Assembly: GCA_964524515.1 (NCBI GenBank)
Contig: CAZGEA010000001.1
Coordinates: 169,522-233,521 of the forward strand
Source of the DNA: an uncultured Gammaproteobacteria bacterium
GTDB taxonomy: Bacteria; Patescibacteriota; Microgenomatia; UBA8517
Reading direction: 5' to 3'
Length of the DNA stretch: 64,000 nucleotides
This document shows, one piece after another, positions 2,333 to 53,052 of the stretch; within the stretch, counting starts at the first letter, position 1; every line of letters begins with the position of its first letter. The notes under the pieces were generated by a model. The model saw nothing but the letters and a program-made list of their open reading frames with translations. It ran no database searches and was not told the origin of the DNA. The position numbers were made by a program, and so were the translations under genes.

Positions 2333-2884
2333 AATGATATTTTGAGATTGAGAAACCTCACTTTGAGCCGTATTATTAACGTTTTCGTTAGGTTCGAGCC
2401 GTTCTAATGTATTAATTTCTGTAACTGCCTGCTGAATTTTGAAAAATGGTGTTCGTGCCTCAATTGTAAGTTTTTTATCCTTTAAAAGTAGGTGCGAGCC
2501 AATTGCTCTTAAAATTATTTTACGTTCTTCAATATCCCCATCTGAAAATCTGTCTTGTGCTGTTGCAGCAAAGTCGAATGTTTTAGCGGCCAACTCTGCC
2601 CATTCATCAATATATTTATCTACTTTTGATAATAGCTCTTGCGCCCTAGCTTTTTCGACCAACAGTGATTCTTTTTTCTCTGCAAATTCCTCGTCTGAAA
2701 TTAAAATACCACCTTTATTTGCCTCGGATATTTTTAGTTCAAGTAAATTATCAATTTTTCTTACAATATCTTCATAGGATTTTTTCAATGCCAAATAACG
2801 AGTCTCTCGCGTCTCTTTTTGCTTCTCATTTACAACATTAAGCCATTTAATTGCCCAATCCACAAATTCATAGTCAAGTTTCAT
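2267..2884 (-). CDS. hypothetical coiled-coil protein whose reading frame continues antisense through tRNA-His; possibly a 3'-truncated gene remnant
   Basis: First ATG is at 2884 with an in-frame stop 15 codons upstream. The last ~20 codons are the reverse complement of the tRNA, so the native C-terminus is doubtful. The opposite-strand ORF 2439..2777 is low-complexity and rejected. Confidence 0.3.
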   Translation of the reverse strand: MKLDYEFVDWAIKWLNVVNEKQKETRETRYLALKKSYEDIVRKIDNLLELKISEANKGGILISDEEFAEKKESLLVEKARAQELLSKVDKYIDEWAELAAKTFDFAATAQDRFSDGDIEERKIILRAIGSHLLLKDKKLTIEARTPFFKIQQAVTEINTLERLEPNENVNNTAQSEVSQSQNIIWGGRPVSNRRPLLSQSSALTN

Positions 2885-2986
2885 CGTGCCTAAAATATCA
2901 AAAACCTGCTTCTCAAGTTCTTTTGCTTATTATTCTTCTGATTTGTGATATTTTTGGAATAAAGATTCACAAAAAACAAAGATAAG

Positions 2987-3388
2987 TTACTGATTGCCGG
3001 CGGTCATTTCAAGGTATCGTTTGTACTTTGGGTCTCCTTCCAATCTTTTTATTTCTGCATTAAGCTCTGTATCGGTCATTTGTGAGTAGGCATCCTCAAA
3101 AGCTATTTTATCTGCTTTATATTTTCCAAGTAACTTATAGGCTTTATCTAGCGCTGCGTCCCTAGCCCGCCAGTTTTTGCTTTTTAAGAGCGCTTGATGA
3201 GTTTTGAGCAGGTTCTCTTCTGACAAGTAGTCTTTCATCAGCTCCTGCCATCCTCTACTTTGAGTGAGCTGTTGTGGGTTTTTATAAGAGCCGGCTTTAT
3301 ATCCGGATTCTTTCATAGCCGTGGATACCGACTTTCCAGTATTTTCCAGTAATTTGTGGACGACAAGTTTTTGCTTGAGAGTGGACAT
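2987..3388 (-). CDS. phage terminase small-subunit-like HTH DNA-binding protein (Terminase_2-like)
   Basis: Starts at ATG 3388 (MSTLKQ); the longer ORF-track start at 3541 adds an unlikely hydrophobic extension. Contains the TerS-type HTH signature MKESGYKAGSYKNPQQLTQSRGWQELM, comparable to AGYS...A..S.LL. No large terminase gene is nearby. Confidence 0.45.
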   Translation of the reverse strand: MSTLKQKLVVHKLLENTGKSVSTAMKESGYKAGSYKNPQQLTQSRGWQELMKDYLSEENLLKTHQALLKSKNWRARDAALDKAYKLLGKYKADKIAFEDAYSQMTDTELNAEIKRLEGDPKYKRYLEMTAGNQ

Positions 3389-3406
3389 CTGTATATGTAG
3401 TATAAT

Positions 3407-4093
3407 ATGCCAATGCTCTCTATTGAGAGCATTTTTGTTATTTATATGGACAGAAATGAAGAAATAATTGGCTACTATTCTAATCAGCCTACATGGCAGC
3501 TTGTAAAGTTTAGTGCTTACAAGAGGCAATTTACTCATCAATTAGCAATTCACTATTTGGAACACGAAATTTTTGAGTCAGTGGACAGAGAGATGCAGCA
3601 TATCCTAAGTGGACAAAATGCAGGATTTTATGCTGGCCTTAGATTTTTGTTTGCGGAAGTTACAGCGCTATCCCATTTATATTGGGGGGTAAAATCATTT
3701 ATCCCTCGTAAGGAGAGTGCATATGTTGCCAGATTTATGAGAAAGTTCGGAGTGTTACCTCCTGAGCATGGTGTCCATTATGAAACATTCAGGCATGGAC
3801 TGATGCACTCTCATCATCCAAAGTGGATAAAAAAAGGAAATCGAATTATAGGTTGGTATATTAGTAATACAGCAAAAGCAAACAGCTTCGGAATCTTCAT
3901 TCCCGAGTTCACCGAGCAAGTTAAAAATACCATTAGTGCTTTTATTGCCGAGTTGAGGGTAGAAGAAATAGCAGGTAAAAATACCCGACTCAAAAAATTT
4001 ATTGAAGGATATACCCACACCGCCAAAGTATTGAAGCGTAGGGACTTAGGCAAATACTCAAGAACGGATTTTTCAAAAGTACCTATTACCTAA
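3407..4093 (+). CDS. hypothetical protein with a HEPN-like R-x4-H motif (FRHGLMHSHH); first gene of a four-gene cassette
   Basis: The ORF ends 1 nt before the next gene. An alternative start at ATG 3446 (MDRNEE) is more compatible with the -10-like tagtataat at 3397-3405. Histidine-rich. Family not recognised. Confidence 0.4.
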   Translation: MPMLSIESIFVIYMDRNEEIIGYYSNQPTWQLVKFSAYKRQFTHQLAIHYLEHEIFESVDREMQHILSGQNAGFYAGLRFLFAEVTALSHLYWGVKSFIPRKESAYVARFMRKFGVLPPEHGVHYETFRHGLMHSHHPKWIKKGNRIIGWYISNTAKANSFGIFIPEFTEQVKNTISAFIAELRVEEIAGKNTRLKKFIEGYTHTAKVLKRRDLGKYSRTDFSKVPIT

Positions 4094-4094: not shown

Positions 4095-5051
4095 ATGAAG
4101 ACAAAGAATCTATTTTCAGGCAGGAAAAAGTTTGTAACCATTCCAGTTGCCGCACTTCTCGGCCTGTTTTTCCTTCCTGTAACTATTGGCATTTTACTTA
4201 TTTACTTTTCAAATAAGAAAATTAGGTTAAAACCTTTGCGTTATTCTATTGTCGGCATACTCTCCTTAATTACCCTATTTTTTGGAACTGCCTATGTAGC
4301 AGCTTTTGTATCCCCAAGCACCCCTAAACAGGAAACGAAAGAGCCGGAAGCGGTAATTTCGACAAGTCCTACGCCAATTCTTGCTATGCAAAATCAAGGC
4401 TTGGTAAAAGTAACGCGGGTGATTGATGGAGACACGATTGAAATTGAAGGTGGACAAAGGGTAAGGCTAATTGGCATAGATACTCCGGAGACAGTTGACC
4501 CAAACCGCCCTGCCGGATGCTATGGCACCGATGCCAGTAGTTTTACAAAAGCTCAACTTGAAGGCAAAGAAATAAAACTAGAAAAAGATATTTCAGAAAC
4601 AGACCAATATGGAAGATTATTGCGTTATGTATGGCTTGGAGACACTTTATTTAATGAAACCCTTGTCAAAGAAGGCTATGCTCAAGTCTCAACTTACCCG
4701 CCGGATGTAAAAAACAGCGAAAGATTTTTAGCTGCTCAAAAAGAAGCAAGAGACAATAATCGAGGTTTGTGGTCTACATGCCAAAACACCCCTGCTCCCA
4801 GTACATCTGTCTCAACTCCGAAGCCAGTTACAGCTACCCCAAAACCCAATGTGGCAACTCAACAAACCCAAACTTCCGGCTCGTGTAAGTATTCTTGCAA
4901 TTCACCGGATAGAGATTGCTCTGATTTTTCAACCCATGCAGAAGCACAAGCGTTTTTCAACTGTTGTGGATTCTCTGCCGGCAATGACCCTATGAGACTT
5001 GATAAGGCCACTGGAACAGGAAATGGAATTGCCTGCGAGAGTTTACCTTAG
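4095..5051 (+). CDS. membrane-anchored thermonuclease (SNase/micrococcal nuclease family) with C-terminal Excalibur calcium-binding domain
   Basis: Two N-terminal TM helices. SNase motifs VIDGDTIEIE, RLIGIDTPE and YGRLLRYVW. A Thr/Pro-rich linker leads into an Excalibur-like C-terminus (CSDFSTHAEAQAFF...DKATGTGNGIACE). Confidence 0.85.
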   Translation: MKTKNLFSGRKKFVTIPVAALLGLFFLPVTIGILLIYFSNKKIRLKPLRYSIVGILSLITLFFGTAYVAAFVSPSTPKQETKEPEAVISTSPTPILAMQNQGLVKVTRVIDGDTIEIEGGQRVRLIGIDTPETVDPNRPAGCYGTDASSFTKAQLEGKEIKLEKDISETDQYGRLLRYVWLGDTLFNETLVKEGYAQVSTYPPDVKNSERFLAAQKEARDNNRGLWSTCQNTPAPSTSVSTPKPVTATPKPNVATQQTQTSGSCKYSCNSPDRDCSDFSTHAEAQAFFNCCGFSAGNDPMRLDKATGTGNGIACESLP

Positions 5052-5059
5052 AATTAATT

Positions 5060-6979
5060 ATGGAAAATAAAATCTCAAAAGCGACCAGACAGCTAATTTT
5101 TGACTTTTTAAAAGCTGAGAAAATAAAGTGGTTCGGTAGTTCAGATGATATATCATTTTTGGAAAAAATATTTGATTTGGAAAATTTACCGTCGACTGAT
5201 GGTAGATACAGCAATGTAAAGGGAGATATTTTTCAACACAGACAGAATAATGCGGATTGGGAAGACGATTGGATTTTCACAGACAGCCGGTTCAACCTCC
5301 TGAATTGTGAAGATAGCATATATTGTAAATTTATAGAGGAGATTTTAAATCCACTAATAAGAGCAGAAAACGAAATAGACTCTATAATCTCCTTTGCAAA
5401 TGACGCACTCAAAAGAGATAAATATCTAATCGTAAAAAAGGAAAAAATTGGAGGAAAGCAGTTTTATCAAATTCTTCCACTTAAATGGGTTGAATCAATA
5501 AAAGATATTGAGTTCCGAGTCGTTCGAGGGAATACTCCACCCGCTTACTATATCAATGAACCTTCTAGATTGATATTAAAGTGGGACAACTGGAACGATT
5601 ACGGATATGAAACACTTTTTTACTTGGATTATGTCGATGAGAATAAGAAGGTGCATTCTATTGGTGCAGTCAAAATTGCATTTATTGCCGATAAACCTAA
5701 GGCCGATGAAAAACCACTTTCTACACGTAATGTTTTAGAAGCAGTGTTTTCAGAACTCCCTAGCAATTTTTTTTCACTAGGACAATCACCTGACTACTAT
5801 CAAAATTTATTGAGTTTGGGAAAACCTATTTATACCACCGTTCTTGAAAAACTCCGAGACGTAGTTTTTAACGAAGAAGTCTTAAAAAGTTTCCGGGAAA
5901 CTGAACCGTTTAAAGTCTCTTTGATAAGAGGTTCGGAAGCTGAAAAGGCTTTTGGTGAATCAGGAGAACTATTCAAACTAGAATATAGAAAGTTTGAAGA
6001 TACTTTAAACTTCACGTTTACTACAAGGGTCAAAAACGCTGATAACGAACATGCTGTAACGTTTGACTTTCGAAAAGGAGCGCTACCGCATAGAATACAT
6101 GTCCTGATTGGCAAGAACGGAACTGGAAAAACCATGTTTTTGAATAACCTATCTAACGCTTTGAGCGGAATCTCAGGAGAAAAGCTTAAAAGCGAGTTCG
6201 GTACTTTTGATACAAAGCCAAGTTTTAGGAAAATAATTACTTTCTCATATAGCGCTTTTGATACTTTTAACACTTCAACTCAAAACTCACTAGGATACAA
6301 ATATTGCGGCATTAGGAAAGATGACAATGAACTGTTTTCAAGGAAAGAACTAAAAAGCAAGTTTGTTAACTCTATCAGGCAGCTAAAATCAAAAGGTAGA
6401 GTTCATGATTGGAATCAAGGCATGTTAAAACTTCTGAATATACCTGAAATCGTAAATGAAGATTTTGACGAAGGGGTATGGAGCGATAGATATGACCTCC
6501 TTAGCTCTGGGCAGACAATTATTTGTACACTGCTCGCTGAAACATTGGCATTTATAGAAAAAGAATCTTTGATACTTATAGATGAGCCAGAATTACACTT
6601 ACACCCCAACAGCTTAATAGGCTTTATTAACACACTTTATTTTATTTTGAATAGCTATGATTCCTATGCAGTTTTAGCTACTCATTCTCCAATTGTCGTA
6701 AAGGAGATACCCTCAAAATATATTAATGTTTTCCGTCGTTCTGATAATAGCCCATATATTCAAACATTAAATTTTGAAACTTTTGGAGAGAATTATTCAG
6801 TCATTGCACAGGAAATTTTTGGTCTTATCGAATCTGACCACATATATAAAAAGGTTTTAGAAGAATTGTATAAGGAAACGCTTTCGATTGATGAAGTAAA
6901 AAAGTTATTTAATGGCAACCTTAGTGCAAATGCTGAAATATATCTGAATGTATTAAAAAATAACCATGAAAAAGATTAA
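5060..6979 (+). CDS. ABC/AAA_21-type ATPase (Septu PtuA-like) with an unassigned ~350-aa N-terminal domain
   Basis: Walker A GKNGTGKT at about aa 351, signature-like LSSGQ, Walker B/D-loop LILIDEPELHLHP and H-loop LATHSP. Residues 1-340 match nothing I recognise. The start lies 8 nt after the nuclease stop. Confidence 0.85.
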   Translation: MENKISKATRQLIFDFLKAEKIKWFGSSDDISFLEKIFDLENLPSTDGRYSNVKGDIFQHRQNNADWEDDWIFTDSRFNLLNCEDSIYCKFIEEILNPLIRAENEIDSIISFANDALKRDKYLIVKKEKIGGKQFYQILPLKWVESIKDIEFRVVRGNTPPAYYINEPSRLILKWDNWNDYGYETLFYLDYVDENKKVHSIGAVKIAFIADKPKADEKPLSTRNVLEAVFSELPSNFFSLGQSPDYYQNLLSLGKPIYTTVLEKLRDVVFNEEVLKSFRETEPFKVSLIRGSEAEKAFGESGELFKLEYRKFEDTLNFTFTTRVKNADNEHAVTFDFRKGALPHRIHVLIGKNGTGKTMFLNNLSNALSGISGEKLKSEFGTFDTKPSFRKIITFSYSAFDTFNTSTQNSLGYKYCGIRKDDNELFSRKELKSKFVNSIRQLKSKGRVHDWNQGMLKLLNIPEIVNEDFDEGVWSDRYDLLSSGQTIICTLLAETLAFIEKESLILIDEPELHLHPNSLIGFINTLYFILNSYDSYAVLATHSPIVVKEIPSKYINVFRRSDNSPYIQTLNFETFGENYSVIAQEIFGLIESDHIYKKVLEELYKETLSIDEVKKLFNGNLSANAEIYLNVLKNNHEKD

Positions 6980-7793
6980 TCCATATCGATGTGATAATTT
7001 TGCAGAATATAATAGCGTAGTTGCGAAGAAGTCGAATCAATCTGAAAAAATATTGCTATCTAATGTCAGCTCTAAAGTAGACAATAGATACAAAGAATAT
7101 GAAGATAATACAAGTTCACTAGAAATGATTGGCCTAATTAGTTGGGAAAAGGAAAACGCTAAGGCCTTACGAAATCTAGTTAACAGCCGCACTTATTTCT
7201 CAACGCTTAAAAGGAAGATACGACAGCTTAGCAAAAATGGCAAATGTATGTATTGCGATTTTAGTGAACATGACCCCTTAGACCACTACTTGCCCAAGAA
7301 CCCCTATCCTGAATTTTCAATTTTTAGCCTGAACTTGATACCGTCTTGCAGTAGATGTAATCGATTAAAGCACGATGAAATATTCATTAATGGAAAAAGG
7401 GTGTATCTTAATCCCTACTTTGATGCGATTGACGAAAAGCAATATGTAGTTTGTGACATTTATTTCAAAGGAAGCAATCTTCCCACACCTGAGTTTAGTA
7501 TAGAATCTTATAAAGGCGATACTCTTGCAGAAATATTTTTGACTCATTTTGAGAAGCTTAGTTTGAAAGAAAGATATGAAAATGAGGCTAACGAACTTAT
7601 AACTAATTGGGTTTCGAGAGCTGCACAGATTAAAAACATATCTGGCGATTTTAATACAAATATGAAAAACCTTATTAGAGTTGACCTTAATGCAGATAAG
7701 ACGAGATTCGGGATTAATAATTGGAGATATGCAGTAGAGAAAGCAATGATAGAAAGTGATAAATTTATAGAATATTGTAAAAATGCAGTATAG
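6966..7793 (+). CDS. HNH endonuclease (Septu PtuB-like)
   Basis: HNH core CMYCDFSEHDPLDHYLPKN...SCSRCNRLKHD (two CxxC pairs, DH, N). The start overlaps the ATPase stop by 14 nt, which indicates translational coupling. Confidence 0.8.
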   Translation: MKKINPYRCDNFAEYNSVVAKKSNQSEKILLSNVSSKVDNRYKEYEDNTSSLEMIGLISWEKENAKALRNLVNSRTYFSTLKRKIRQLSKNGKCMYCDFSEHDPLDHYLPKNPYPEFSIFSLNLIPSCSRCNRLKHDEIFINGKRVYLNPYFDAIDEKQYVVCDIYFKGSNLPTPEFSIESYKGDTLAEIFLTHFEKLSLKERYENEANELITNWVSRAAQIKNISGDFNTNMKNLIRVDLNADKTRFGINNWRYAVEKAMIESDKFIEYCKNAV

Positions 7794-10023: not shown

Positions 10024-10078
10024 ATTGATATAGAAATTCTAAATTTTATATTGTATAATCCTTATTCACTGTCTAAAA

Positions 10079-11227
10079 ATGTTAAATAACAACGATATGA
10101 CACCAGAAAGATCAAAAGATATTACAAATTTAAATGACCCACAAGTTTTAGTTTCTGACGTTCTAAAAATGCGTGAACTAAATCCAGCCAATAGAATGGC
10201 CAAGTTCTTCCCTACAGATTATTTTTTAAGCCAAACACCAGCAGTTCAAGCAGAAATCTCAAAAATTGTAATTGCAGGACTTGCAAACAACGATAGCGAA
10301 ATTGGAGCTTATGCTATGGCAACAACTGACTACGACACTTTTAGTCCAGTTTTAGATCCAATTATCCAAGATTATCATGCAGTTACCCCAGAATTTAAAT
10401 TTCAAGGAAATTGGGACATAAACGGATTAGATTTAGATTTAAAAAAGGTTGATCTTCAATTATCAGATGTTTCAATGAGAGTACGTGTTGCAAGAAATGT
10501 TTCAGGTTGGCCAATGACTGGAAGCATGTCACAAGATGATAGAGTTAATTTTGAAAATTACATGGTCGAAACAGTATTTGAAAAAATGATCTCAAATCCA
10601 AAGTATGGTGGAAGATACGTATCCCTCACTCCTGGATCAAAATATCAAATTTCAGATGATGAATATAACCAATTGGTCGCAGAACACAAAATGTACAAAG
10701 ACATGAGTGCTGATCCTCATCTTGCTGCAGCAGGAATCAGTGGTGATTGGCCATATGGAAGAGGAATGTATGTTTCAGCAGATGGTGGATCAATTGTATG
10801 GGTTAACGAAGAAGATCATTTAAGAATCATGAATATGAAAAAAGGTTCCGATCTATCAACTATTTTCAACGGACTCAGAGAAGAATTGGATTTAATCGAA
10901 TCACTTGGTGTTCCATTTGCAAGATCTGAAAAATATGGCTATGTCACAAGCTGTCCATCAAATTTAGGTACAGGAATGCGCGCAAGCTTACATTTGGCTC
11001 TTCCAAACTTAACTGAAAACGGTAAAAACACCGATAAATTAAAAAATATTTTAAAGGAAAACAAACTAAACGTATCAGTTCGCGGAATAGGTGGAGAACA
11101 CACAGCAGCTGGTGAAGGTGGAATAGTTGATATCTCACCAAGAGGTAGAATGATTCCAGAAAATCAAGTCATAACTCAGCTTTACGACGCAGCAGCAAAA
11201 CTCTTAAGTCTAGAAAAAAGCGCTTAA
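10079..11227 (+). CDS. phosphagen kinase, eukaryote-type arginine kinase family (ATP:guanidino phosphotransferase)
   Basis: Active-site CPSNLGTGMRAS, NEEDHLRIM, WPYGRGMY and C-terminal RGIGGEHT...GGIVDIS. The N-terminal small domain (GAYAMATTDYDTFSPVLDPIIQDYH) matches arthropod arginine kinase, not McsB-type bacterial kinases. Confidence 0.85.
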   Translation: MLNNNDMTPERSKDITNLNDPQVLVSDVLKMRELNPANRMAKFFPTDYFLSQTPAVQAEISKIVIAGLANNDSEIGAYAMATTDYDTFSPVLDPIIQDYHAVTPEFKFQGNWDINGLDLDLKKVDLQLSDVSMRVRVARNVSGWPMTGSMSQDDRVNFENYMVETVFEKMISNPKYGGRYVSLTPGSKYQISDDEYNQLVAEHKMYKDMSADPHLAAAGISGDWPYGRGMYVSADGGSIVWVNEEDHLRIMNMKKGSDLSTIFNGLREELDLIESLGVPFARSEKYGYVTSCPSNLGTGMRASLHLALPNLTENGKNTDKLKNILKENKLNVSVRGIGGEHTAAGEGGIVDISPRGRMIPENQVITQLYDAAAKLLSLEKSA

Positions 11228-11294
11228 TAAACTATCTTCAAAATTAAAGCCCTAACAAGTGTTTTATTTTATTACACCAGTCAGGGCCAAAAAA

Positions 11295-11675
11295 TTACCT
11301 ATCAAAAACTCCGCTTAAATCAGTAGTCCAGCCTTTCTTTTTTACAGAATCTAGTAATTTTCCAGACTTTGTATCCCACACACCAATCCAAGTATATGAT
11401 GATGCACTTCCATAATGATAAGCAGCAGCAAATTTTGTTGAGTCAGAACTAAATCCTGCAGCCTTAACATCATTTGGTGTTGAAAATTCAGCATTTGTTT
11501 TAAACGATTGTCTAGTTGTGATATCAATTACTAAATAATGAACATCGATTTGACCTCCAGTTTTTATTGCAATGAAATGCAAATTTGGGGATACTTTTGT
11601 AAATACCGCCAAAAGAACAACAATCGCGAGAATTAGAAAAAATCCCAACTGTAGAATCTTAGCAACTACACGCAT
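11295..11675 (-). CDS. membrane-anchored hypothetical protein with one beta-propeller-like blade (WDTKSGKL)
   Basis: N-terminal TM helix. No family assignable. Confidence 0.3.
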   Translation of the reverse strand: MRVVAKILQLGFFLILAIVVLLAVFTKVSPNLHFIAIKTGGQIDVHYLVIDITTRQSFKTNAEFSTPNDVKAAGFSSDSTKFAAAYHYGSASSYTWIGVWDTKSGKLLDSVKKKGWTTDLSGVFDR

Positions 11676-32433: not shown

Positions 32434-33060
32434 ATGGCACCAGTAATTTACAGAAGACAAAAACAAATTTTAGACTTTATTCGTCAACACATCCAAGCAT
32501 ATGGATATGCCCCAACTCTCCGCCAAATTGCTGATTCAATCGGAGTTTCATCTCTTGCAACAGTGCACGAACATCTAGAATCCCTTGAAGCTAAAAAATT
32601 AATAACCAGAAAGCCAGGACGAACAAGATCAATTCACTTACCAGACGAAGTCTATTCTTTTCAAGAAAACTATACCGAAATGGTTGTTCCAGTGTTAGGT
32701 TTCATTGCAGCAGGAACTCCAATCGAGCCATATCCTGATCCAAATGCCATGATGAATATTCCTGGAACTTTTGCATCAAAAAATAAAAGAATTTATGTTC
32801 TACAAGTTAAAGGAGAATCAATGATAGAAGATCACATAAGAGATGGAGACAATGTAATTATAGAAGAAACAGCAGTTGCCAGAAATGGTGAGATTGTTGT
32901 TGCACTTCTAGATAATGGAGTTGCCACTTTAAAAAGATTTTACAAAGAACCAAAAAGGATCAGACTTGAACCAGCAAATTCTACAATGAAACCAATTTTT
33001 GCAAAAAATGTAAAAATACAGGGAAAATTAATCGGATTAATTAGAAAATATTCAAACTAA
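32434..33060 (+). CDS. lexA: LexA repressor (S24 peptidase)
   Basis: N-terminal winged HTH (RRQKQILDFIRQH..GYAPTLRQIA), cleavage-site region, catalytic Ser in GESM and Lys in TLKRF. The ORF-track TTG at 32398 is probably too far upstream. Confidence 0.85.
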   Translation: MAPVIYRRQKQILDFIRQHIQAYGYAPTLRQIADSIGVSSLATVHEHLESLEAKKLITRKPGRTRSIHLPDEVYSFQENYTEMVVPVLGFIAAGTPIEPYPDPNAMMNIPGTFASKNKRIYVLQVKGESMIEDHIRDGDNVIIEETAVARNGEIVVALLDNGVATLKRFYKEPKRIRLEPANSTMKPIFAKNVKIQGKLIGLIRKYSN

Positions 33061-34718
33061 AAAATTCCCTCCAATAGATTTCTTCCCATCATCGATGAAG
33101 GCACACTCAAATTAAGCAACTTAAGAATTGTTGGTGCCACATCAGCCAACACTCCTGATTGAATTTGATTTTGCCTACCTGCCAAACTTTTTGAAATCAC
33201 CAAAAACGGAACTGGATTACCACTATGTTCTGTATCACGCTCGCCAGTTGTATGATTTAACATTTCCTCAGCGTTTCCATGATCAGCAGTCAAAATCAAT
33301 ATTCCATCTGTTGCCAAAACAAAGCTAGCAAGTTTATAAATACATTTATCCAAAGTCTCACAAGCTTCAATTGCTGAATTCAAATTTCCAGTGTGGCCCA
33401 CCATATCAGCGTTTGCATAATTAATTAAAACAAAAGAAAATCCCAGATCAGATCGAAGTTTTGAAAGCAATGCATCAGTCATCTCTAAAGCCGACATTTC
33501 AGGTTTTAAATCATAAGTTGCTACTTTAGGTGATGGCACAATCAATCTTTCTTCTCCAACAAACGGATTTTCCCTCAATCCATTAAAATAAAAAGTAACA
33601 AACCTTTCCTTTTCAGATTCAGAGACTCTAAGCTGTCGCAATCCAGCTTCTGAAATTACACGTCCCAAAGGCAACTCAACAACTTCAGGAGGATATGCAA
33701 CATGCGCTCCACTTTCAACAATAGATTTTTCATATTCTGTCATTGTCACAAAATACAAATTACTCAAAAGTTTCCCTCGCTCAAATGCATAATCATGAAC
33801 AGGCTGGGAATGCACATGCTTTTTTTCATACTTAACTAAATAAGGATCAAAATCTTCTTTTTGACTTCCTGTAAAATCTTTTAACAAAAAAGCTTTAGTC
33901 AATTGTCTTGGTCTATCAATCCTAAAATTAAAAAATATCACCGAATCATTTTCCTCAATTAATCCAATTGGTTTATTTTTACTATCAACAATCAAAGAAG
34001 GTTCAATAAACTCATCAGTTTTTCCATCGCTATAAGACTTATCAATTGCTGATTCAAAATCAGTAAAAAAATTCCCTTGCCCTTTTGTTAATGCAAAATA
34101 TGCTTTTGCAGTTCGCTCCCATCGGTGATCACGATCCATTGCCCAATAACGGCCCATTATTGATGCAACTTGGCCCACTCCTTCTTTTTTAATAACATCA
34201 CTTAATTCCTGGAAATAGATCTTGGCACTGGTTGGTGGTGAATCGCGTCCATCAGTAAACATATGCAGATAAACTTTTTCAGTTAAATTTTTCATTTTAA
34301 GTAAATGCAAAAGTGCAAATAAATGCTGCCTATCAGAATGTACCCCACCTGCACCCAATAATCCCATTAAATGAATTTTTGAATTATTTTTAGCAGCATG
34401 CTCAATTGCTCCAATTAAAGCTAAATTATTATAAATAGAACCATCAGCAATCGACATATTAATGCGTTCCAAGTCTTGATAAACAATTCGTCCTGCGCCC
34501 AAGTTCAAATGTCCCGTTTCAGTGTTTCCAACTTCACCACGAGGCAACCCCACAGCCTGACCAGAAGCCAACAGTTGAGTATGAGGATAAGTTGCAAAAT
34601 ATGAATTCAAATTAGGAAGTTTTGCAGAAGATATAGCATTTCCCTGTGTATTTGAAGAAATTCCCCATCCATCCAAAATCGCCAAAATTATAAATTTACT
34701 AGATGATGCTGGATTCAT
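33057..34718 (-). CDS. gpmI: 2,3-bisphosphoglycerate-independent phosphoglycerate mutase
   Basis: 553 aa with the N-terminal metal-binding region ILAILDGWG and full iPGM length. Confidence 0.9.
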   Translation of the reverse strand: MNPASSSKFIILAILDGWGISSNTQGNAISSAKLPNLNSYFATYPHTQLLASGQAVGLPRGEVGNTETGHLNLGAGRIVYQDLERINMSIADGSIYNNLALIGAIEHAAKNNSKIHLMGLLGAGGVHSDRQHLFALLHLLKMKNLTEKVYLHMFTDGRDSPPTSAKIYFQELSDVIKKEGVGQVASIMGRYWAMDRDHRWERTAKAYFALTKGQGNFFTDFESAIDKSYSDGKTDEFIEPSLIVDSKNKPIGLIEENDSVIFFNFRIDRPRQLTKAFLLKDFTGSQKEDFDPYLVKYEKKHVHSQPVHDYAFERGKLLSNLYFVTMTEYEKSIVESGAHVAYPPEVVELPLGRVISEAGLRQLRVSESEKERFVTFYFNGLRENPFVGEERLIVPSPKVATYDLKPEMSALEMTDALLSKLRSDLGFSFVLINYANADMVGHTGNLNSAIEACETLDKCIYKLASFVLATDGILILTADHGNAEEMLNHTTGERDTEHSGNPVPFLVISKSLAGRQNQIQSGVLADVAPTILKLLNLSVPSSMMGRNLLEGIF

Positions 34719-34735
34719 ACTGTTAAATCTTCCAT

Positions 34736-36007
34736 TTATTGTCTTGAAATAATCTCAAGCTCAATAGCAGAAAGACGGTTGTATTTTACCACCCTCTCAC
34801 CTCGAGATGGAGCACCAAACTTAACATATTCAGCATTAACTCCCACTGCAAAATCTGCAATAAACCAATCAGTAGTTTCCCCTGATCTATGAGATACATT
34901 TATTTTCCATTTAGCATCGCGCGCAATTTTAATTACCTCCAATGTTTCAGTAACAGTTCCAATTTGGTTTGGTTTAACCAATACTGCATTACAAGATTTT
35001 TCAGCGATAGCTTTTTTAATGCGTTCCGGGTTTGTAACTAATAAATCATCACCTACAACAAGCAATTGATCACCAAGCATTTCAGTAATTTTTTTCCATC
35101 CACTCCAAGCATCTTCAGTCAAAGGATCTTCCAAAATTGCCATGCGATACGTTTCATTTAATTCTTTATAATATTCAATAAAAGATGCTTCATCAATTGG
35201 AGCTGATTTGTCACGAATCGAATAAGTTCCATTACTATAAAAATTTGATGACGCCACGTCCAATCCCAAAAAAACATCACGTCCTAAAGTGTATGGAGTT
35301 TGTCTTATTGTATCAACCAAAATCTCAAGTGCATCAGCATTAGTAAACAAATTAGGTGCATATCCACCCTCATCTCCAACAGAATGAATTGCCCCACGTC
35401 TTTTAAGATTCTCACCTAAACTCAAATAAACTTCAGCTCCCAATTGAAGACTTTCAGCAAATGTTTTAATAGTAGCTGGAATCACAAAAAACTCTTGAAA
35501 ATCCAAGTTCCCTGCACCATGCAATCCACCATTTATCATATTAAAAACCGGTGTTGGCATTTTCCAAGTTGGAGTTAAAATTCCCATTTTATTTGCAAGA
35601 CCACGAACATATGAATAAGGTGGATTACCAGATACCAATGCTGCAGCTTTACAAACTACCAAAGAAACAGCAAGTGTACTATTTGCTCCAAGCTTGGATT
35701 TATTTGGAGTTCCATCCATACTTTTCAACTTATGATCAATCTCACTTTGCTGTGAAGCTTCCATTCCAACTACAGCAGGCCCCAAAATTGTATTTACATT
35801 ATTAACAGCTTTCAGTACTCCCTTTCCCTTAAAACGTGTTGGGTCATTATCCCGAAGTTCCAAAGCCTCATGTGTTCCAGTTGACGCTCCAGATGGAACT
35901 GATGCAATTGCAATATGTCCGGTATCCAATTGACATGCAGCCTCAACTGTTGGATTTCCACGGGAATCCAAAATCTCATTAGCCCAAAGTCTTGAAATTT
36001 TTGCCAT
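34736..36007 (-). CDS. eno: enolase
   Basis: N-terminal IxxRExLDSRGNPTVE-type sequence, the SHRSGETED-like SHRSGETTD motif and 423 aa. Confidence 0.95.
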   Translation of the reverse strand: MAKISRLWANEILDSRGNPTVEAACQLDTGHIAIASVPSGASTGTHEALELRDNDPTRFKGKGVLKAVNNVNTILGPAVVGMEASQQSEIDHKLKSMDGTPNKSKLGANSTLAVSLVVCKAAALVSGNPPYSYVRGLANKMGILTPTWKMPTPVFNMINGGLHGAGNLDFQEFFVIPATIKTFAESLQLGAEVYLSLGENLKRRGAIHSVGDEGGYAPNLFTNADALEILVDTIRQTPYTLGRDVFLGLDVASSNFYSNGTYSIRDKSAPIDEASFIEYYKELNETYRMAILEDPLTEDAWSGWKKITEMLGDQLLVVGDDLLVTNPERIKKAIAEKSCNAVLVKPNQIGTVTETLEVIKIARDAKWKINVSHRSGETTDWFIADFAVGVNAEYVKFGAPSRGERVVKYNRLSAIELEIISRQ

Positions 36008-36013
36008 TTAAAT

Positions 36014-38308
36014 TTAAATCTCCTTTTCTGCTTGGTGGACGATTCCACGAACTCTCGAAACTGCATCTGGATTAACAGATAAACTTGTTATTCCAAAACT
36101 TACCAATTTTTTAACCAAATCATCATAACTTGATGCTGCCTGTCCACAAATTGAAACAGTAACGTTTCTAGCCTGACAATGCTTAATTACTCTCTTTAAA
36201 GCCCACAGAACTGCTTTTGATCTTTCATTGTAGCTTTCAGCAACTTCAGCATTATCACGATCTGTTCCCATCAATAACATCGTCAAATCATTTGATCCAA
36301 CTGATACACCATCAATTCCAACATCCAAAAATTCATCAATCATAATTACATTAATTGGCAATTCAACCATCATCCAAAATTTAAAACTTGCCGATTCAAA
36401 AAGTCCCTCAGTAGCAACAAGTCTTCGCACACGAGCTAATTCTTGTGGTGATCTCACAAATGGAATCATCAAGTGCAAATTATCGTACTCCTCTCGAACT
36501 TTTCTCAAAGCAGTCAATTCCAAATTAAATACTTCAGGCTGCTTTATATATCTAAATGCTCCACGAAAACCCATCAAAGGATTTGGCTCTTCAGGTTCCC
36601 ATGCTTTACCACCCTGAAGTGATCTATATTCATTAGTTTTAAAATCAGTAGCTCGATAAACCACAGGTCTTGGATAAAAATTCTTTGCAAAAGTTTTCAT
36701 ATTTGATGCCAATTTACGCACAAACTCATCCTGAGTTTTATTTTTAATTGCCTCCTTAGGATGAATTCCAATGTTTGCAATCATAAATTCAGCACGCAAT
36801 AATCCAACTCCATCAACATTCATATCCGATACTTTTGAAGCTAATTCAGGCTCAGCCAAATTAACATATATTTTAGTTGCAGTTTTCAAATGTGCACTCT
36901 TCTCATCCATCGCTTTTTCACTAGCCTTATCTTCTTTTGTAACTTTAACTGCTGATCCCATAAAAATCTGTCCCTTCTTGCCATCAACAGTAATTATTTG
37001 ATCTTCTTTAAGTAAGGCTGTTGCATTTTTTGTACCAACTACACAAGGCACTCCAAGTTCACGAGAAACAATTGCAGCATGTGATGTCTGACCTCCTTCA
37101 TCAGTTACAATTCCGGCAGCTTTTTTCATAGCAGGAACATAATCAGGTGAAGTCATTTTTGCAACCAATATATCTCCATGTCCCACTTTTCCAATCTGTG
37201 CAGGAGAATGTACAATTCTCACTCTTCCAGTTCCAATTCCAGGAGATGCAGCACTTCCCATCAAAATTGGTGTCGTCAAAGTTGAAATATCTTCATTTCC
37301 TAATTTTTTTGTAGTTTTACCAACCACTCCACCATCTTTTGAACCCATTGTGGTAACTGGTCTTGTCTGTACTATATAAATTTTTCCATTATCACGTGCC
37401 CACTCAACATCTTGTGGAAAATAATAATGCTCTTGTAGTCTCTGTCCAATTTTTGCAAGTACTGTAATCTCATCGTTCGATAATTTTTGAGTATCTCTTT
37501 GCTTAACTGGCACTGCAATTTCTTCAGTTACTCCACCTTTTTTAGTTAATTGAATACTTTGATCAGAAACTTCCTTTGAAAGTATTGAAAAAGTATCTTT
37601 TTGAACTACATAATGATCAGGAACAACTGATCCTTGCACCATCATTTCTCCAAGCCCCCAAACAGCCTCAATAATAATCTGTTCTTTATCATTTGTAACT
37701 GGATTAATCGTAAACATAACACCAGATACTTCAGACTGAACCATTTTTTGAACTATTACACTAATTTTCACTTTCTCATGAGAAATTTTCTGCTGTACTC
37801 TATAAAAAATAGCACGTTCTGTAAAAAGTGAAGCCCAACATTCACGAACCTTCATCAATAATGTAGTTGCGCCTTTAACATTTAAATACGTAGCCTGTTG
37901 TCCAGCAAAACTCATTCCAGGCAAATCCTCGGCCGTTGCAGAAGATCGAACTGCAACATTTATAGTTGATAAAATTCCAGAAATTTTTCTATATGCTTTT
38001 TCAACTTCGAGTATTACTTCTTTAGGAATTGGAGCTTTAACTATTCTTTGTTGGATTAATCGTGTTGCTTTCCTTAAATTTTCAGTATCATTTACATCTG
38101 TTTCTCGAAGTATTGCATCAATTCCCTGTTTTAAATCATTCTCTTCCAAAAAAAGATCATAAGCTGAAACTGTAATTGCAAACCCTGGTGGAACTGGAAA
38201 CTTAGCCTGGGTCATCTCACCCAAATTAGCTCCTTTTCCTCCAACAGAACCTACATCACCTTTTGAAATATCCTTAAAAAATAATATTAGCGGCAGTTTG
38301 TGACTCAT
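36014..38308 (-). CDS. ppsA: phosphoenolpyruvate synthase (pyruvate, water dikinase)
   Basis: PEP-utilising enzyme domains (GGKGANLGEM, GGQTSHAAIVSRELGVPCVVG phospho-His region, C-terminal TIM barrel). Start taken at MSHKL (38308) so it does not overlap the next gene. Confidence 0.8.
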   Translation of the reverse strand: MSHKLPLILFFKDISKGDVGSVGGKGANLGEMTQAKFPVPPGFAITVSAYDLFLEENDLKQGIDAILRETDVNDTENLRKATRLIQQRIVKAPIPKEVILEVEKAYRKISGILSTINVAVRSSATAEDLPGMSFAGQQATYLNVKGATTLLMKVRECWASLFTERAIFYRVQQKISHEKVKISVIVQKMVQSEVSGVMFTINPVTNDKEQIIIEAVWGLGEMMVQGSVVPDHYVVQKDTFSILSKEVSDQSIQLTKKGGVTEEIAVPVKQRDTQKLSNDEITVLAKIGQRLQEHYYFPQDVEWARDNGKIYIVQTRPVTTMGSKDGGVVGKTTKKLGNEDISTLTTPILMGSAASPGIGTGRVRIVHSPAQIGKVGHGDILVAKMTSPDYVPAMKKAAGIVTDEGGQTSHAAIVSRELGVPCVVGTKNATALLKEDQIITVDGKKGQIFMGSAVKVTKEDKASEKAMDEKSAHLKTATKIYVNLAEPELASKVSDMNVDGVGLLRAEFMIANIGIHPKEAIKNKTQDEFVRKLASNMKTFAKNFYPRPVVYRATDFKTNEYRSLQGGKAWEPEEPNPLMGFRGAFRYIKQPEVFNLELTALRKVREEYDNLHLMIPFVRSPQELARVRRLVATEGLFESASFKFWMMVELPINVIMIDEFLDVGIDGVSVGSNDLTMLLMGTDRDNAEVAESYNERSKAVLWALKRVIKHCQARNVTVSICGQAASSYDDLVKKLVSFGITSLSVNPDAVSRVRGIVHQAEKEI

Positions 38309-38333
38309 TAATTTAAATATACAGTATTTATAG

Positions 38334-39401
38334 TTAGTGTGAAAGCTTGGACTTAAAAGTATCAACCCAAGGAATAACAGATGGATCAACATCAGACAAA
38401 TAAGCCAAATAATAACTTAAATATGATCCAAATATAATTAATTCTAAAACTTCAGCCAATCGCACACTTGAGCGTGTTGTATATGAAATATGTTTATATT
38501 CCTGCTTTCTAAAAATCTCACTCAATACTTCATATCTTCTTTTTATTTTCTGAAAATAATTAGGGGACTCGATTGTAAACAATATCGATGACAATTTAAT
38601 ATCCCGAGGAAGTGTTAGCCCTTCCAATAAATGATGATTTGATTCAGGAACTTCAAACAAATTAGAAAATGTTTTCGAACATTCATTTAATTGATTTTTA
38701 AATGTATATGAAGCACCTATTAAATGTTCACTTGCAAAAATAATAAAAAACTTTCCGTAAGTTTGTTCTGCAATTCTTTTAGCAAAATTGTGAACTGTTG
38801 AGCTTTGTGGATCAAACTCTTGAATATATTTTCTTGATTCCGCGTTAGCACTTTCCAATTGAACTTTTGGAAAATTAATAACACCACACGCATCAAGTAA
38901 TAATCCAACTGAAGCAATTGCATAACCTGTTCCCATTCTAGGTTGTCCAGACGGATTTTCTGATGGATTAAAAATATACGCTGGTATATTTTGTTCATGA
39001 AATTGAGCAAGGCGTCCCCCAGTTGTAATAATAAATATCTTTGCGTTTGCAAGCCTCGCATGTTCCATTGATGAAATCGTCTCCTCAGTGTCTCCTGAAT
39101 ATGAATAAGAAACAAATAATGTTTTTTGATTAACATAATTTGGAATTGAATAATCATTAATTATCTCAACTGGCACTCTAGTGGAGCCTGTAGTAAGTGA
39201 TTTAATCGTTCGCGCACCAAGCGCTGATCCACCCATTCCTGAAATAACAACATTTTCAATATCACTATAGTCTGGGGGAATATGAATCTCACTAAATTCG
39301 CGTACTGTTTGAGTTATTTGATTATTAAATGAAGAAATAGAGTCCAAAATTCGCCCTTTATCGTATTTTTTAATATCAGCCACATTATCAAGCGATTTCA
39401 T
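38334..39401 (-). CDS. bifunctional phosphoglucose/phosphomannose isomerase (SIS domain)
   Basis: SIS motif ISGMGGSALGA. 355 aa. Confidence 0.6.
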   Translation of the reverse strand: MKSLDNVADIKKYDKGRILDSISSFNNQITQTVREFSEIHIPPDYSDIENVVISGMGGSALGARTIKSLTTGSTRVPVEIINDYSIPNYVNQKTLFVSYSYSGDTEETISSMEHARLANAKIFIITTGGRLAQFHEQNIPAYIFNPSENPSGQPRMGTGYAIASVGLLLDACGVINFPKVQLESANAESRKYIQEFDPQSSTVHNFAKRIAEQTYGKFFIIFASEHLIGASYTFKNQLNECSKTFSNLFEVPESNHHLLEGLTLPRDIKLSSILFTIESPNYFQKIKRRYEVLSEIFRKQEYKHISYTTRSSVRLAEVLELIIFGSYLSYYLAYLSDVDPSVIPWVDTFKSKLSH

Positions 39402-39404
39402 ATT

Positions 39405-41514: not shown

Positions 41515-41910
41515 TTATGACTGATCATACGCTCGAATCAAACTTTTCAAAGTATCATGAAAATTCCCTTTTCCATGTTTATGGGGTGCCAAACTTCCAG
41601 AAAAGTTTTTAGGGATATGGGCAATCTCATGAAGCAAAATTTTATCCTGTTCCTTTTGAGGCAATTTATCAAATTTTTCAGATATAACTTCAATTACGTA
41701 TGCAGGCTCAATACCATATGCAATTTGCCAAACTTTAGAAAAACCCCAAATCCTAGCATACGCTCTAGTGTTTGCATTAATTGATCGAAGAGTTTTAATT
41801 CTTTCAAGATTTACCCACAAAATTTCAGTTCTTTCAACCAAATATTCAATTCTCTCGAGTATGTCTGGGGCAAGGGTCCATTCAATTTTTCCTTTTTTTG
41901 CTCTTGTCAT
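41515..41910 (-). CDS. predicted HExxH zinc metallopeptidase (SprT/Wss1-like small protein)
   Basis: LLHEIAH motif plus a downstream His. Its stop overlaps the ruvC start. Confidence 0.45.
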   Translation of the reverse strand: MTRAKKGKIEWTLAPDILERIEYLVERTEILWVNLERIKTLRSINANTRAYARIWGFSKVWQIAYGIEPAYVIEVISEKFDKLPQKEQDKILLHEIAHIPKNFSGSLAPHKHGKGNFHDTLKSLIRAYDQS

Positions 41911-52434: not shown

Positions 52435-53052
52435 TTACAATGATACTTTTGGTGTCTTTGTCTCATCTTCAGATACTTCCATATGAGATCCAGTCTCAGG
52501 AGTAATTAGTCCTGGAAGTTCATTAAATGAAAACATACTTGCGATCATATTACTAGGAAATGAAACTCTCTTTACGTTGTAATCAGCTGTTAAATCGATG
52601 ACCAATCTTCTGGCATACATTACTTTGTCAGATGTATCTCGAAGCTCACTCATCAAATCAGAAACGATTTGAGAAGCTTGCATTTGAGGATTGCTTTCAA
52701 CCGCAACACTTAGTCGAGGTAATACAGCTGAAAGTTTTTCTCCAGCTTCAGACATTTTTTGTATATCTCCAGATTTTGAAGCTTCAGTAATAGCTTTTCG
52801 TGCATCAGTCAACATTTTAAATATCTGTGTCTCATGCTTCATGTAGCCTTTAACAGAAGATTCAAGGTTTGGAATTAATTCTGCTTGTCTTTTAAGCTGA
52901 TTTCCAATTTCTTGAATTGCTGCTTTAATTCTTGCCTTACTTGAAACAAAAAAATTATATAAAGAAACAACCCATAAAATAATAAATATAAAAATAATAA
53001 GTGGTATTAATAATTGCATAAAATCACCTCCCAGCAAAAATACATTATACAA
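52435..53052 (-). CDS. lemA: LemA family protein
   Basis: N-terminal TM helix followed by a LemA-like helical domain. Confidence 0.75.
   Translation of the reverse strand: MYNVFLLGGDFMQLLIPLIIFIFIILWVVSLYNFFVSSKARIKAAIQEIGNQLKRQAELIPNLESSVKGYMKHETQIFKMLTDARKAITEASKSGDIQKMSEAGEKLSAVLPRLSVAVESNPQMQASQIVSDLMSELRDTSDKVMYARRLVIDLTADYNVKRVSFPSNMIASMFSFNELPGLITPETGSHMEVSEDETKTPKVSL

Follow-up and report, generated by a model that had tools for sequence, protein, structure and literature searches.

The arginine kinases (AKs) that have been described in bacteria come from a handful of Proteobacteria and from Oceanithermus, and there is an ongoing debate as to whether these enzymes are of ancient bacterial standing or were taken over from eukaryotes (PMC6429109, PMC11492440). 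In the classification of Suzuki et al. 2013, as far as it is relayed in PMC11492440 and PMC6429109, the AKs of ciliates group with AKs of bacteria in a cluster A that stands apart from most invertebrate AKs, and the bacterial hosts of cluster A include Sulfurovum, Oceanithermus, Nitratifractor and Moritella. Cluster B contains the AKs of Limulus (1M15/1BG0), shrimp and Anthopleura (4RF6), and also those of Desulfotalea and Myxococcus. For each of the two clusters, bacterial members have been reported as active AKs (PMC11492440, PMC6429109).

The DNA analysed here is a stretch of 64,000 nucleotides (the window), and we consider it likely that one of its genes encodes a soluble, stand-alone phosphagen kinase of the cluster A branch that works in a host of the Candidate Phyla Radiation (CPR), most likely on ATP and L-arginine and as an ATP buffer, and that was not imported recently. 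Whereas the published bacterial AKs have proteobacterial hosts or Oceanithermus, the host of this kinase belongs to the Patescibacteria, so that a known enzyme gains a new lineage of hosts, the CPR; none of the papers searched links arginine kinase with the CPR. A conserved and compositionally native clade of AK-like genes in the CPR takes the enzyme into a region of the bacterial tree far from its published hosts. CPR bacteria are thought to be host-dependent and to live on a minimal energy metabolism that is largely fermentative. An active enzyme would provide such cells with a phosphate reserve that can be recharged, which matters for their survival between hosts, and because the kinase is small and soluble this claim is cheap to test.

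Gene, domain architecture and distinction from McsB

The gene is an uninterrupted open reading frame of 382 codons from ATG to stop (10079..11227, + strand, stop codon included), and the Pfam domains, the PDB matches, the AlphaFold2 model and the fold match all mark its predicted product as a phosphagen kinase of the arginine type. Two Pfam domains each score above their gathering cut-off, namely PF00217 for the catalytic part (E=1.7e-48, 165 bits; residues 163-381, i.e. 10565..11221, +) and PF02807 for the N-terminal part (30.5 bits, the cut-off being 25.7; residues 55-97), and thereby establish the two-domain architecture of the phosphagen kinases. PF02807 lies within an all-helical small domain of about 110 residues (residues 1-110; 10079..10408, +). 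The earlier note had taken the gene for a full two-domain phosphagen kinase on the basis of the segments YAMATTDYDTFSPVLDPIIQDYH (residues 78-100), WPYGRGMY (residues 224-231), NEEDHLRIM and CPSNLGTGMRAS; all of these were found, and at the level of sequence the open reading frame is confirmed as a complete gene of this type.

A second in-frame ATG (M7; 10097..10099, +) stands where the homologues in a 13-sequence alignment (A1) start with 'MT...', so that the actual protein may have 376 residues; no Shine-Dalgarno motif is visible before either candidate start (10079 or 10097). Within the gap of 55 bp before the first ATG, two matches to sigma-70-like promoters overlap, one being TTGATA-16-TATATT and the other TAGAAA-17-TATAAT (10025..10059, +). 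A scan for promoters and terminators revealed no statistical enrichment and the number of promoter matches in the region is no higher than in shuffled sequences, so that it is the position of the two matches that is suggestive.

The AlphaFold2 model of the 382-residue protein (pLDDT 93.8, pTM 0.90) combines a helical N-domain with an alpha/beta C-domain. The helices predicted in the N-domain span residues 10-19, 21-34, 39-43, 46-51, 54-69, 84-87 and 89-100, with a pLDDT above 90 from residue 21 onward. The top fold match found by Foldseek is AK3 of Paramecium (7EWS; TM 0.87/0.88), followed by the transition-state structure of Limulus AK (1BG0; TM 0.78/0.84). A sequence search of the PDB returned AKs at 176-352 bits (E=1e-51 to 1e-104), similarities that, as sequence matches go, are far beyond chance. 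Among the single-domain chains Paramecium AK3 scores best (260 bits versus about 177 for Limulus), and the second-best PDB match overall is a taurocyamine kinase that evolved from an AK.

The NCBIfam library matches the protein solely with models of McsB (E down to 5e-31), and one source labels the homologue P0105 'protein-arginine kinase', which could be taken to mean that the gene encodes a McsB-like enzyme with a role in tagging proteins for degradation or in controlling a repressor. Such an identity is scarcely credible. The scores of 47-108 bits are far under the cut-offs of the McsB models (381-679), every one of which is missed, and the matches cover just the catalytic core that the two families have in common; likewise, the McsB chains in the PDB reach about 64 bits, well below the AK matches. 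McsB is devoid of the N-terminal small domain and carries a C-terminal domain for dimerisation and pArg binding, whereas the window kinase has the substrate-clamping N-domain, confidently modelled, and ends at its catalytic domain. A search for mcsA, ctsR and clpC near the kinase gene found none of them. We therefore rejected McsB on the grounds of the scores and the N-domain, in line with what had been proposed before. This also has a practical side: the NCBIfam models for prokaryotes include none for the two-domain AKs, and the labels of the homologues vary by source from 'creatine kinase' to 'protein-arginine kinase' and 'hypothetical protein'.

Place within the arginine kinase family

The earlier note had further described the kinase as eukaryote-type and closely alignable with arthropod AK, and this goes too far. 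Limulus AK shares 36% of its residues with the kinase in an alignment that needs 36 gaps, as against 43% for Paramecium AK3 (PDB 7EWS; 8 gaps) and 53-55% for AKs of the Zetaproteobacteria and Desulfuromonadales (5 gaps), with Mariprofundus at 55%. Moreover, four insertions of 5, 2, 3 and 1 residues are common to the window kinase, Paramecium AK3 and the bacterial homologues and are absent in the AKs of Limulus and Anthopleura. The alignment places the 5-residue insertion within TPGSKYQIS (10628..10654, +) and the 2-residue insertion within KDMSADPHL (10697..10723, +). The shared indels and the identities match the ciliate/bacterial cluster A, which argues against the arthropod branch, and on these sequence features, compared with Paramecium AK3 and the bacterial homologues named above, we assign the window kinase to the cluster A subfamily. 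In a neighbour-joining tree the cluster B outgroup is split from all other sequences with 100% support.

The relation to cluster B is that of a common fold and catalytic residue set at a lower overall similarity. The two-domain fold, the catalytic Glu/Cys/Arg set, S63, Y68 and the length of the specificity loop (residues in Limulus numbering) are all shared, but the arthropod and cnidarian AKs are 35-37% identical to the window kinase (24-36 gaps), lack the four subfamily indels and have an Asp62-Arg193 pair of their own. An arthropod-type assignment was rejected accordingly, given the identity to Limulus AK, the gaps in that alignment and the indels.

Among the solved structures, Paramecium AK3 of cluster A is the best match in both sequence (single-domain chain) and fold; it shares the four indels and, like the window kinase, lacks both the Arg of Limulus position 193 and the Gly of position 64. 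It differs from the window kinase by a Ser at the position of Tyr78 (Y68), a Leu at that of His305 (H284), and GKRQS in place of GMRAS, so that the active site of the window kinase is nearer to that of the canonical AKs than the active site of AK3 is. The bacterial relatives, many of them uncharacterised (in Zetaproteobacteria, Desulfuromonadales, Psychromonas and marine Alphaproteobacteria), are 50-57% identical over the full length, are likewise encoded by stand-alone genes, have the same indels and do not differ from the window kinase at any of the mapped catalytic positions. The window kinase nevertheless belongs to a separate clade with signatures of its own, namely an insertion N331-V332, a deletion of one residue after M358, and R39, T147 and N252.

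The notion that phosphagen kinases occur only sporadically in bacteria was an understatement of their distribution: among the species-representative genomes of bacteria at least 153 loci encode the subfamily.

Active site, specificity loop and likely substrate

At 26 of 30 mapped positions the residue of Limulus AK is identical in the window kinase, and one further change is conservative (T273 to Ser). The catalytic and nucleotide-binding set is kept entirely (R124, R126, E225, R229, C271, R280, H284, R309, E314 and R330 in Limulus numbering), with R134, R136, R249, R301, R335, R357, E245 and E340 among the equivalents present in the window kinase. The phosphate-binding Arg and the catalytic Glu residues are all invariant in the 13-sequence alignment of the clade, and they are invariant as well in an alignment of 52 sequences (A2), save for R134, which is at least 90% conserved. 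With these key residues intact there is no obvious pseudo-kinase, a possibility that the earlier note had wanted to see checked.

Three segments carry most of these residues. NEEDHLRIM (residues 243-251; 10805..10831, +) contains E244 and E245 (Limulus E224/E225), of which the counterparts position the guanidinium group, and R249 (R229, phosphate binding), all three invariant in both alignments. The phosphagen kinase signature CP(S/T)N(I/L)GT with its reactive cysteine (PMC11492440) is present as C292-P-S-N-L-G-T298 within CPSNLGTGMRAS (residues 292-303; 10952..10987, +), which holds the reactive Cys292 (C271) and R301 (R280). The flexible catalytic loop VRGIGGEHTAAGEGG (11078..11122, +) comprises R335 (R309), E340 (E314) and H341, and it is just before this loop that the clade-specific two-residue insertion N331-V332 is found.

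In AKs, Ser63 and Tyr68 of the specificity loop contact the amino-acid end of the substrate, and an ion pair between Asp62 and Arg193 is said to stabilise the closed state. The guanidino-specificity loop of the window kinase, inspected as had been proposed, is D72-S73-E74-I75-G76-A77-Y78 (10292..10312, +; from the alignment and residue map). It has the length of an AK loop and aligns with Limulus D62-Y68 free of gaps; S63, G66 and Y68 are kept (S73 and Y78 being the window equivalents of the first and last), and Limulus G64 is replaced by Glu74. The clade alignment shows no variation at D72, G76 and Y78, and a conservation of at least 90% at E74. As for the ion pair, D72 is present but the position of Limulus Arg193 is taken by Pro213 (within KDMSADPHL), which makes a pair of the Asp62-Arg193 type impossible. 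R193 is replaced (by Pro, Asn or Ser) in all six of the cluster-A-type sequences compared, including Paramecium AK3, which has Gln and Asn at Limulus positions 64 and 193, respectively. Judging from these alignments, the missing ion pair is a trait of the subfamily and no defect specific to the window gene. Since the changes at G64 and R193 are subfamily-wide, they point to a different closing mechanism rather than to a loss of function, although an altered specificity is still possible.

The reaction predicted from the sequence is most likely the reversible conversion of MgATP and L-arginine into MgADP and N-phospho-L-arginine. In this scheme the amino-acid end of the substrate would be gripped by the N-terminal helical domain with its loop D72-Y78, and the guanidinium group would be kept in place by Glu245, Glu340 and Cys292, while Arg134, 136, 249, 301, 335 and 357 would bind the phosphates of the nucleotide. 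The enzyme might instead be an active phosphagen kinase for another guanidino compound, e.g. D-arginine, an arginine derivative or a taurocyamine-like molecule. Shifts of this kind have occurred repeatedly within the AK lineage, a taurocyamine kinase is among the best PDB matches, and AKs active on D-arginine, lombricine or taurocyamine are known (PMC11492440); Glu74, Pro213 and the clade's own changes, including the insertion adjoining the R335 loop, would fit such a shift. We nevertheless hold another substrate to be rather unlikely, for the loop has AK length and retains S63, G66 and Y68, and a non-Gly residue at 64 combined with the loss of R193 is also seen in Paramecium AK3, which has been deposited and described as an arginine kinase. 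In addition, arginine is the sole guanidino substrate available in every cell, while the other precursors need a dedicated biosynthesis that a CPR bacterium would be unlikely to have.

With L-arginine as the preferred substrate, a role in ATP buffering may be envisaged. The host probably obtains its ATP mainly from substrate-level phosphorylation, and a pool of phosphoarginine would smooth the swings in ATP/ADP between feeding and starvation or dispersal.

Host lineage, gene history and neighbourhood

UvrB encoded in the window is 73% identical to that of Candidatus Woesebacteria, and the best named matches are all to Patescibacteria. By these matches the window is a piece of Patescibacteria chromosome (CPR, Woesebacteria-like Microgenomates), which bears out the reduced-genome host lineage that had been supposed. 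The same contig encodes DnaE, UvrABC, GatAB and glycolytic enzymes, and the kinase gene is followed downstream by CPR housekeeping genes (for an ABC-F ATPase, UvrABC, DnaE and glycolytic enzymes); on the upstream side there are three tRNA genes and a defence island.

The core clade of the kinase consists of 12 sequences that are 64-76% identical (99.5% bootstrap). The two clade-member contigs that were classified besides the window are both of CPR origin, and the contig of the earliest-branching member is Microgenomates-like. The contig of the closest homologue shares a His_Phos_1-PPIase-SBP_5-holin block with the window. The scan of species-representative genomes returned neither a member of the core clade nor the window genome (best match 55%), and the taxonomy of the clade was therefore derived from neighbouring genes.

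The gene has a GC content of 36.1% and a GC3 of 23%, compared to 29-37% and 15-24% for 10 chromosomal genes downstream (11.7-51 kb). Because its base composition is host-like and the clade has so far been found on CPR contigs at 64-76% identity, the gene is, by its sequence characteristics, no recent import; where the earlier note had invoked horizontal transfer, there is no compositional sign of a recent event. An old horizontal transfer among bacteria, or a long residence in the CPR, would account for its acquisition. A scan of viral contigs in IMG/VR found no relative, and a phage vector is thus not supported.

Nevertheless, the gene appears to be rare in the CPR, with Patescibacteria accounting for two of the 80 species-representative loci listed by the scan, which suggests an accessory trait, and a seemingly variable region, rich in defence genes and flanked by tRNA genes, is located some 2 kb upstream of it. 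Both observations could fit a catalytically dead relic, or a contaminant from a eukaryote or another bacterium introduced during assembly or binning. We judge this to be very unlikely. The open reading frame is intact, and although the 13 sequences aligned are down to 59-76% identity, none of their catalytic residues varies, a sign of purifying selection; the contig carries CPR housekeeping genes with matching GC and GC3; and in an independent assembly (Logan SRR12762304) the gene recurs together with its downstream neighbours. An arthropod-like origin or eukaryotic contamination was rejected on the same composition and housekeeping genes together with the identities and indels.

A conserved, active kinase that is not a recent import remains the preferred reading. 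It could be extended to a wider scenario that we consider speculative and improbable, in which phosphagen kinases are long-resident in Patescibacteria, ATP buffering by phosphoarginine arose early in ultra-small episymbionts as an adaptation to feast and famine in their energy supply, and the branch is anciently bacterial, the ciliates, chytrids and sponges having acquired it from bacteria. This scenario draws on two well-supported clades with members from the Patescibacteria (99.5% and 93% bootstrap), which it places basally in the bacterial radiation of cluster A.

The window contains no gene for the uptake or metabolism of arginine, and PADLOC matched the kinase with none of its defence models. 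In four CPR contexts a NUDIX gene is found no more than 3 kb from the AK gene and was considered as a partner; the window gene, however, has no such neighbour, and the two NUDIX genes that were compared by BLAST (L001, L084) are not orthologues, so that we treat the co-location as coincidence. An all-versus-all BLAST of the open reading frames within 6 kb of the AK gene (window, L001, L084, L085, L086, L024 and L059) revealed no common partner gene or operon except for a CTP synthase, which L024 and L059 have in common as a matter of ordinary synteny.

Identity and subfamily of the kinase

The open reading frame at 10079-11227 (+) runs from ATG to stop without interruption (382 codons) and contains the four motifs from which the earlier note had proposed a phosphagen kinase (residues 78-100, 224-231, 243-251 and 292-303). 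Both expected domains score above their Pfam cut-offs, i.e. the ATP:guanidino phosphotransferase catalytic domain (PF00217, E=1.7e-48, 165 bits) and the N-terminal domain (PF02807, 30.5 bits versus a gathering cut-off of 25.7), and among all PDB chains the protein's matches to arginine kinases (AKs) have E=1e-51 to 1e-104, those to creatine kinases ~1e-38 and those to the protein-arginine kinase McsB only ~1e-16. Given the intact frame, the motifs and these matches, the identification as a phosphagen kinase is real and far beyond chance, and the proposed two-domain architecture is borne out by Pfam as well as by the structure model (see below). Several homologues have their N-termini ('MT...') at the position of a further in-frame ATG (10097, M7), and the mature protein may therefore lack the first six residues.

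The only NCBIfam matches are to McsB models, with 47-108 bits versus cut-offs of 381-679, and they span just the common catalytic core. Because of these low scores, the presence of the N-terminal domain and the lack of mcsA, ctsR or clpC near the gene in the window, McsB identity is excluded, in line with the earlier note. The close alignment with arthropod AK and the 'eukaryote-type' character that it also claimed did not hold. In BLASTP comparisons the protein is 36% identical to Limulus AK (36 gaps), 35-37% to the Anthopleura AK domains (24-26 gaps) and 43% to Paramecium AK3 (8 gaps), and proteins of Zetaproteobacteria (Mariprofundus) and Desulfuromonadales are nearer, at 53-55% (5 gaps). 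Moreover, four indels are common to the window protein, Paramecium AK3, the bacterial homologues and a chytrid sequence, whereas the Limulus and Anthopleura enzymes lack them: insertions of five residues within TPGSKYQIS, two within KDMSADPHL, one preceding GVPF and three past the LTENG segment. According to a review (PMC11492440), Suzuki et al. 2013 distinguished two AK clusters, of which A includes ciliates, one sponge, Sulfurovum, Nitratifractor, Oceanithermus and Moritella, and B most invertebrates plus Desulfotalea, Myxococcus and Ahrensia. By the comparison with Paramecium AK3, the bacterial homologues and the chytrid sequence, the window protein has the character states of cluster A.

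Active site, predicted fold and probable reaction

We mapped 30 functionally annotated positions from the Limulus reference (PDB 1RL9, 357 residues). The window protein keeps all nucleotide-phosphate arginines (R134, R136, R249, R301, R335 and R357), both guanidinium-positioning glutamates (E245 and E340), the reactive cysteine C292 inside its CPSNLGT signature, the adenine-stacking histidine H305, and D351. The loss of substrate-binding residues by which the earlier note would have recognized a pseudo-kinase is thus not seen, and the guanidino-specificity loop, which it had proposed to inspect, retains S73 and Y78 and has exactly the AK length. The active-site residues do not vary in a 13-sequence alignment of the closest homologues despite divergence to 59-76% identity, and such invariance argues for purifying selection on what is presumably an active enzyme. 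From the complete active site and the AK-length loop we infer the reaction MgATP + L-arginine = MgADP + phospho-L-arginine. The principal alternative, a shift in substrate specificity, we consider improbable; in its favour are a clade-specific N331-V332 insertion adjoining the catalytic loop, the known plasticity of AK-derived kinases and the conservation of Glu74, one of the four mapped positions that differ from Limulus.

Of these four, one is conservative (T273 to Ser) and three are radical: G64 is Glu74 (at least 90% conserved in the clade), R193 is Pro213 and R312 is Gly338. The relatives compared tend the same way: position 64 is Gln in Paramecium AK3 and Mariprofundus, Ile in a Desulfuromonadales sequence and Asn in a chytrid sequence, position 193 is Asn, Pro or Ser, and position 312 is Gly in all. 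R193 forms an ion pair with D62 that is said to stabilise the closed state (PMC11492440). Domain closure over the substrates would proceed as in solved AKs and, because the Asp62-Arg193 pair is missing, other contacts would have to stabilise the closed form, as is required in Paramecium AK3. The AlphaFold2 model, for which 52 sequences were aligned, is very confident (mean pLDDT 93.8, pTM 0.90, disorder limited to residues 1-7) and has an all-helical N-domain and an alpha/beta catalytic domain; its top fold match in the PDB is Paramecium tetraurelia AK3 (7EWS, TM 0.87/0.88), followed by the Limulus transition-state structure (1BG0, TM 0.78/0.84).

Relatives and distribution

The homology search yielded eleven proteins of 64-76% identity and one (P0014) of 59-60%, all metagenomic, below which a very large set follows at ~45-57%. 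In a neighbour-joining tree of 139 sequences (200 bootstraps), the window protein and the eleven form one clade (99.5% support; 80% with P0014 added), and both sequences from named Patescibacteria genomes, at loci L024 and L059 (Woesebacteria UBA925), fall in a second clade (93%). The union of the two clades (33%) and the basal position to the other bacterial sequences (65%) are both weak. Gene contexts suggest that the core clade belongs to the candidate phyla radiation (CPR): P0012 (L084), which branches off first in this clade, lies on a contig that encodes a RelA/SpoT with Microgenomates, Shapirobacteria and Patescibacteria as its best named relatives; the gene of the closest homologue, P0002 (L085), lies two genes upstream of a His_Phos_1-cyclophilin-SBP_5-holin_4_2 block that is also present in the window, 9 kb downstream of the AK gene; and P0005 has ordinary housekeeping neighbours (ThrRS, IF3, L35, L20, PheST and trigger factor). 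As we found no neighbour gene conserved beside AK across the clade, the kinase is a stand-alone function; no relatives were found on viral contigs.

When one genome of each bacterial or archaeal species was scanned with a pattern, at least 153 loci encoding the subfamily were recovered. The 80 listed are mostly from marine Hyphomicrobiales, Rhodobacterales and Rhodospirillales, with further Desulfuromonadales, Zetaproteobacteria, Psychromonas and Myxococcota, and two are from Patescibacteria. Searched exhaustively, a set of 1.84 billion representatives of clusters at 50% identity gave 305 matches with E<=1e-30 and 1846 with E<=1e-10, and many of these are multi-domain proteins of more than 1,000 residues. 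By these counts, the few published cases understate the frequency of two-domain phosphagen kinases in bacteria, but within CPR they are still rare. Bacterial AKs of Desulfotalea, Myxococcus and Sulfurovum have been characterised (PMC6429109), and it is still debated whether bacterial AKs are ancient or transferred from eukaryotes (PMC6429109, PMC11492440). Since the full-text collection searched yielded no paper pairing arginine kinase with Patescibacteria or CPR, what is new is the host lineage and the distinct clade, and not the enzyme family or the kind of system; for the debate on origin, the clade is a data point outside Proteobacteria.

Further features were noted among the relatives. 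Three loci titled Gammaproteobacteria, Chromatiales and Pseudomonadota (L058, L069 and L078) carry a divergent second phosphagen-kinase paralogue (2858-3820, 5019-5981 and 5010-5978, respectively), 27-31% identical to the window protein, directly upstream of the cluster-A-type gene as a tandem pair. In the 509-aa protein P0017 of the chytrid Globomyces sp. JEL0801, the last ~130 residues of the kinase occur a second time at the N-terminus; this copy shares 52% identity with residues 251-382 of the window protein and reflects either a partial tandem duplication or an artefact of the gene model or assembly. The Woesebacteria UBA925 gene is broken at ~4450-4650 of L059 by an N run flanked by duplicated KSHGLSV, which is a scaffolding gap and not a real insertion. 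In four of the examined CPR contexts a NUDIX hydrolase gene lies less than 3 kb from AK (L001 6528-7049, L084 307-762, L087 7438-8031, L088 4632-5084); those of L001 and L084 are not orthologous by BLAST and the window AK has none beside it. NUDIX genes being so common, this proximity is probably chance.

Host genome and probable physiological role

Six tRNA genes lie in the window, a segment of bacterial chromosome that also carries housekeeping genes for DnaE, UvrA/B/C, LexA, GatA/B, RuvC and ribosomal protein L19. The earlier guess of a reduced-genome host proved right, since UvrB shares 73% identity with a protein of Candidatus Woesebacteria and the best named matches are all Patescibacteria or Microgenomates. 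The AK gene (GC 36.1%, GC3 23%) matches ten chromosomal genes downstream (11.7-51 kb; GC 29-37%, GC3 15-24%), and an independent assembly contains an identical AK gene with the same downstream neighbours, which makes contamination or recent import very unlikely.

The physiological role is most likely temporal ATP buffering, i.e. a phosphoarginine pool would bank phosphate-bond energy while the cell is attached and feeding, and release it when the cell starves or disperses. General descriptions of CPR bacteria portray them as dependent on hosts and minimal in metabolism. A contiguous sugar-phosphate and lower-glycolysis array at 33057-40820 (-), encoding phosphoglucomutase/phosphomannomutase, a bacterial-type glucose-6-phosphate isomerase, a 792-aa PEP-synthase/PPDK-type enzyme, enolase and cofactor-independent phosphoglycerate mutase (iPGM), is consistent with a fermentative ATP supply; the window holds no pyruvate kinase, a step that the PEP-utilising enzyme may take over. 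No gene in the window ties AK to arginine transport or catabolism. The ATP buffer of the earlier note stays plausible; its two domains, non-McsB identity and reduced-genome host also stand, and its arthropod-like, eukaryote-type label falls. If active, the enzyme would bear on CPR energy physiology.

The region directly upstream of AK looks variable, with three tRNA genes, an SNase-type nuclease, a Septu-like PDC-M01 defence pair and small DUF1905/DUF1801 genes. A candidate anti-phage island at 4095-7793 (+), ~2 kb upstream of AK and preceded by tRNA genes at 119-2332, comprises the nuclease (PADLOC 'SNc+LTD', 3e-34), a 639-aa protein with an AbiJ N-terminal domain and an AAA/ABC ATPase (PDC-M01A 8e-141, PtuA-like 3e-81) and a 275-aa PDC-M01B protein (4e-55, weakly PtuB-like), whose start is overlapped by the end of the ATPase; PDC-M01A and PDC-M01B make up the Septu-like pair. 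GC is 0.38 at 2-6 kb versus 0.26-0.37 (median ~0.32) elsewhere in the window. Downstream, a 126-aa ORF at 11295-11675 (-), convergent with AK, has a hydrophobic N-terminus and no Pfam match. Between the two genes (~11239-11285) lies a GC-rich inverted repeat (GCCCTAAC...GTCAGGGC) followed by a T-rich tract on the minus strand, which may be the terminator of the minus-strand gene. From 12000 to 64000 the minus strand carries most genes and GC skew is negative in all 2-kb bins but one, mostly -0.16 to -0.30 across ~50 kb, with weaker stretches at 16-20 kb and 54-58 kb; a published Microgenomates genome has been reported to show an unusual disparity in strand composition (PMC7143001). This part of the window also contains a UvrA, UvrB, UvrC and LexA cluster (23.6-33.1 kb), a 'putative phage metallopeptidase' domain protein directly adjoining RuvC (41515-41910, -) and a PolX-type DNA polymerase with pol-beta thumb and PHP domains (53045-54829, -).
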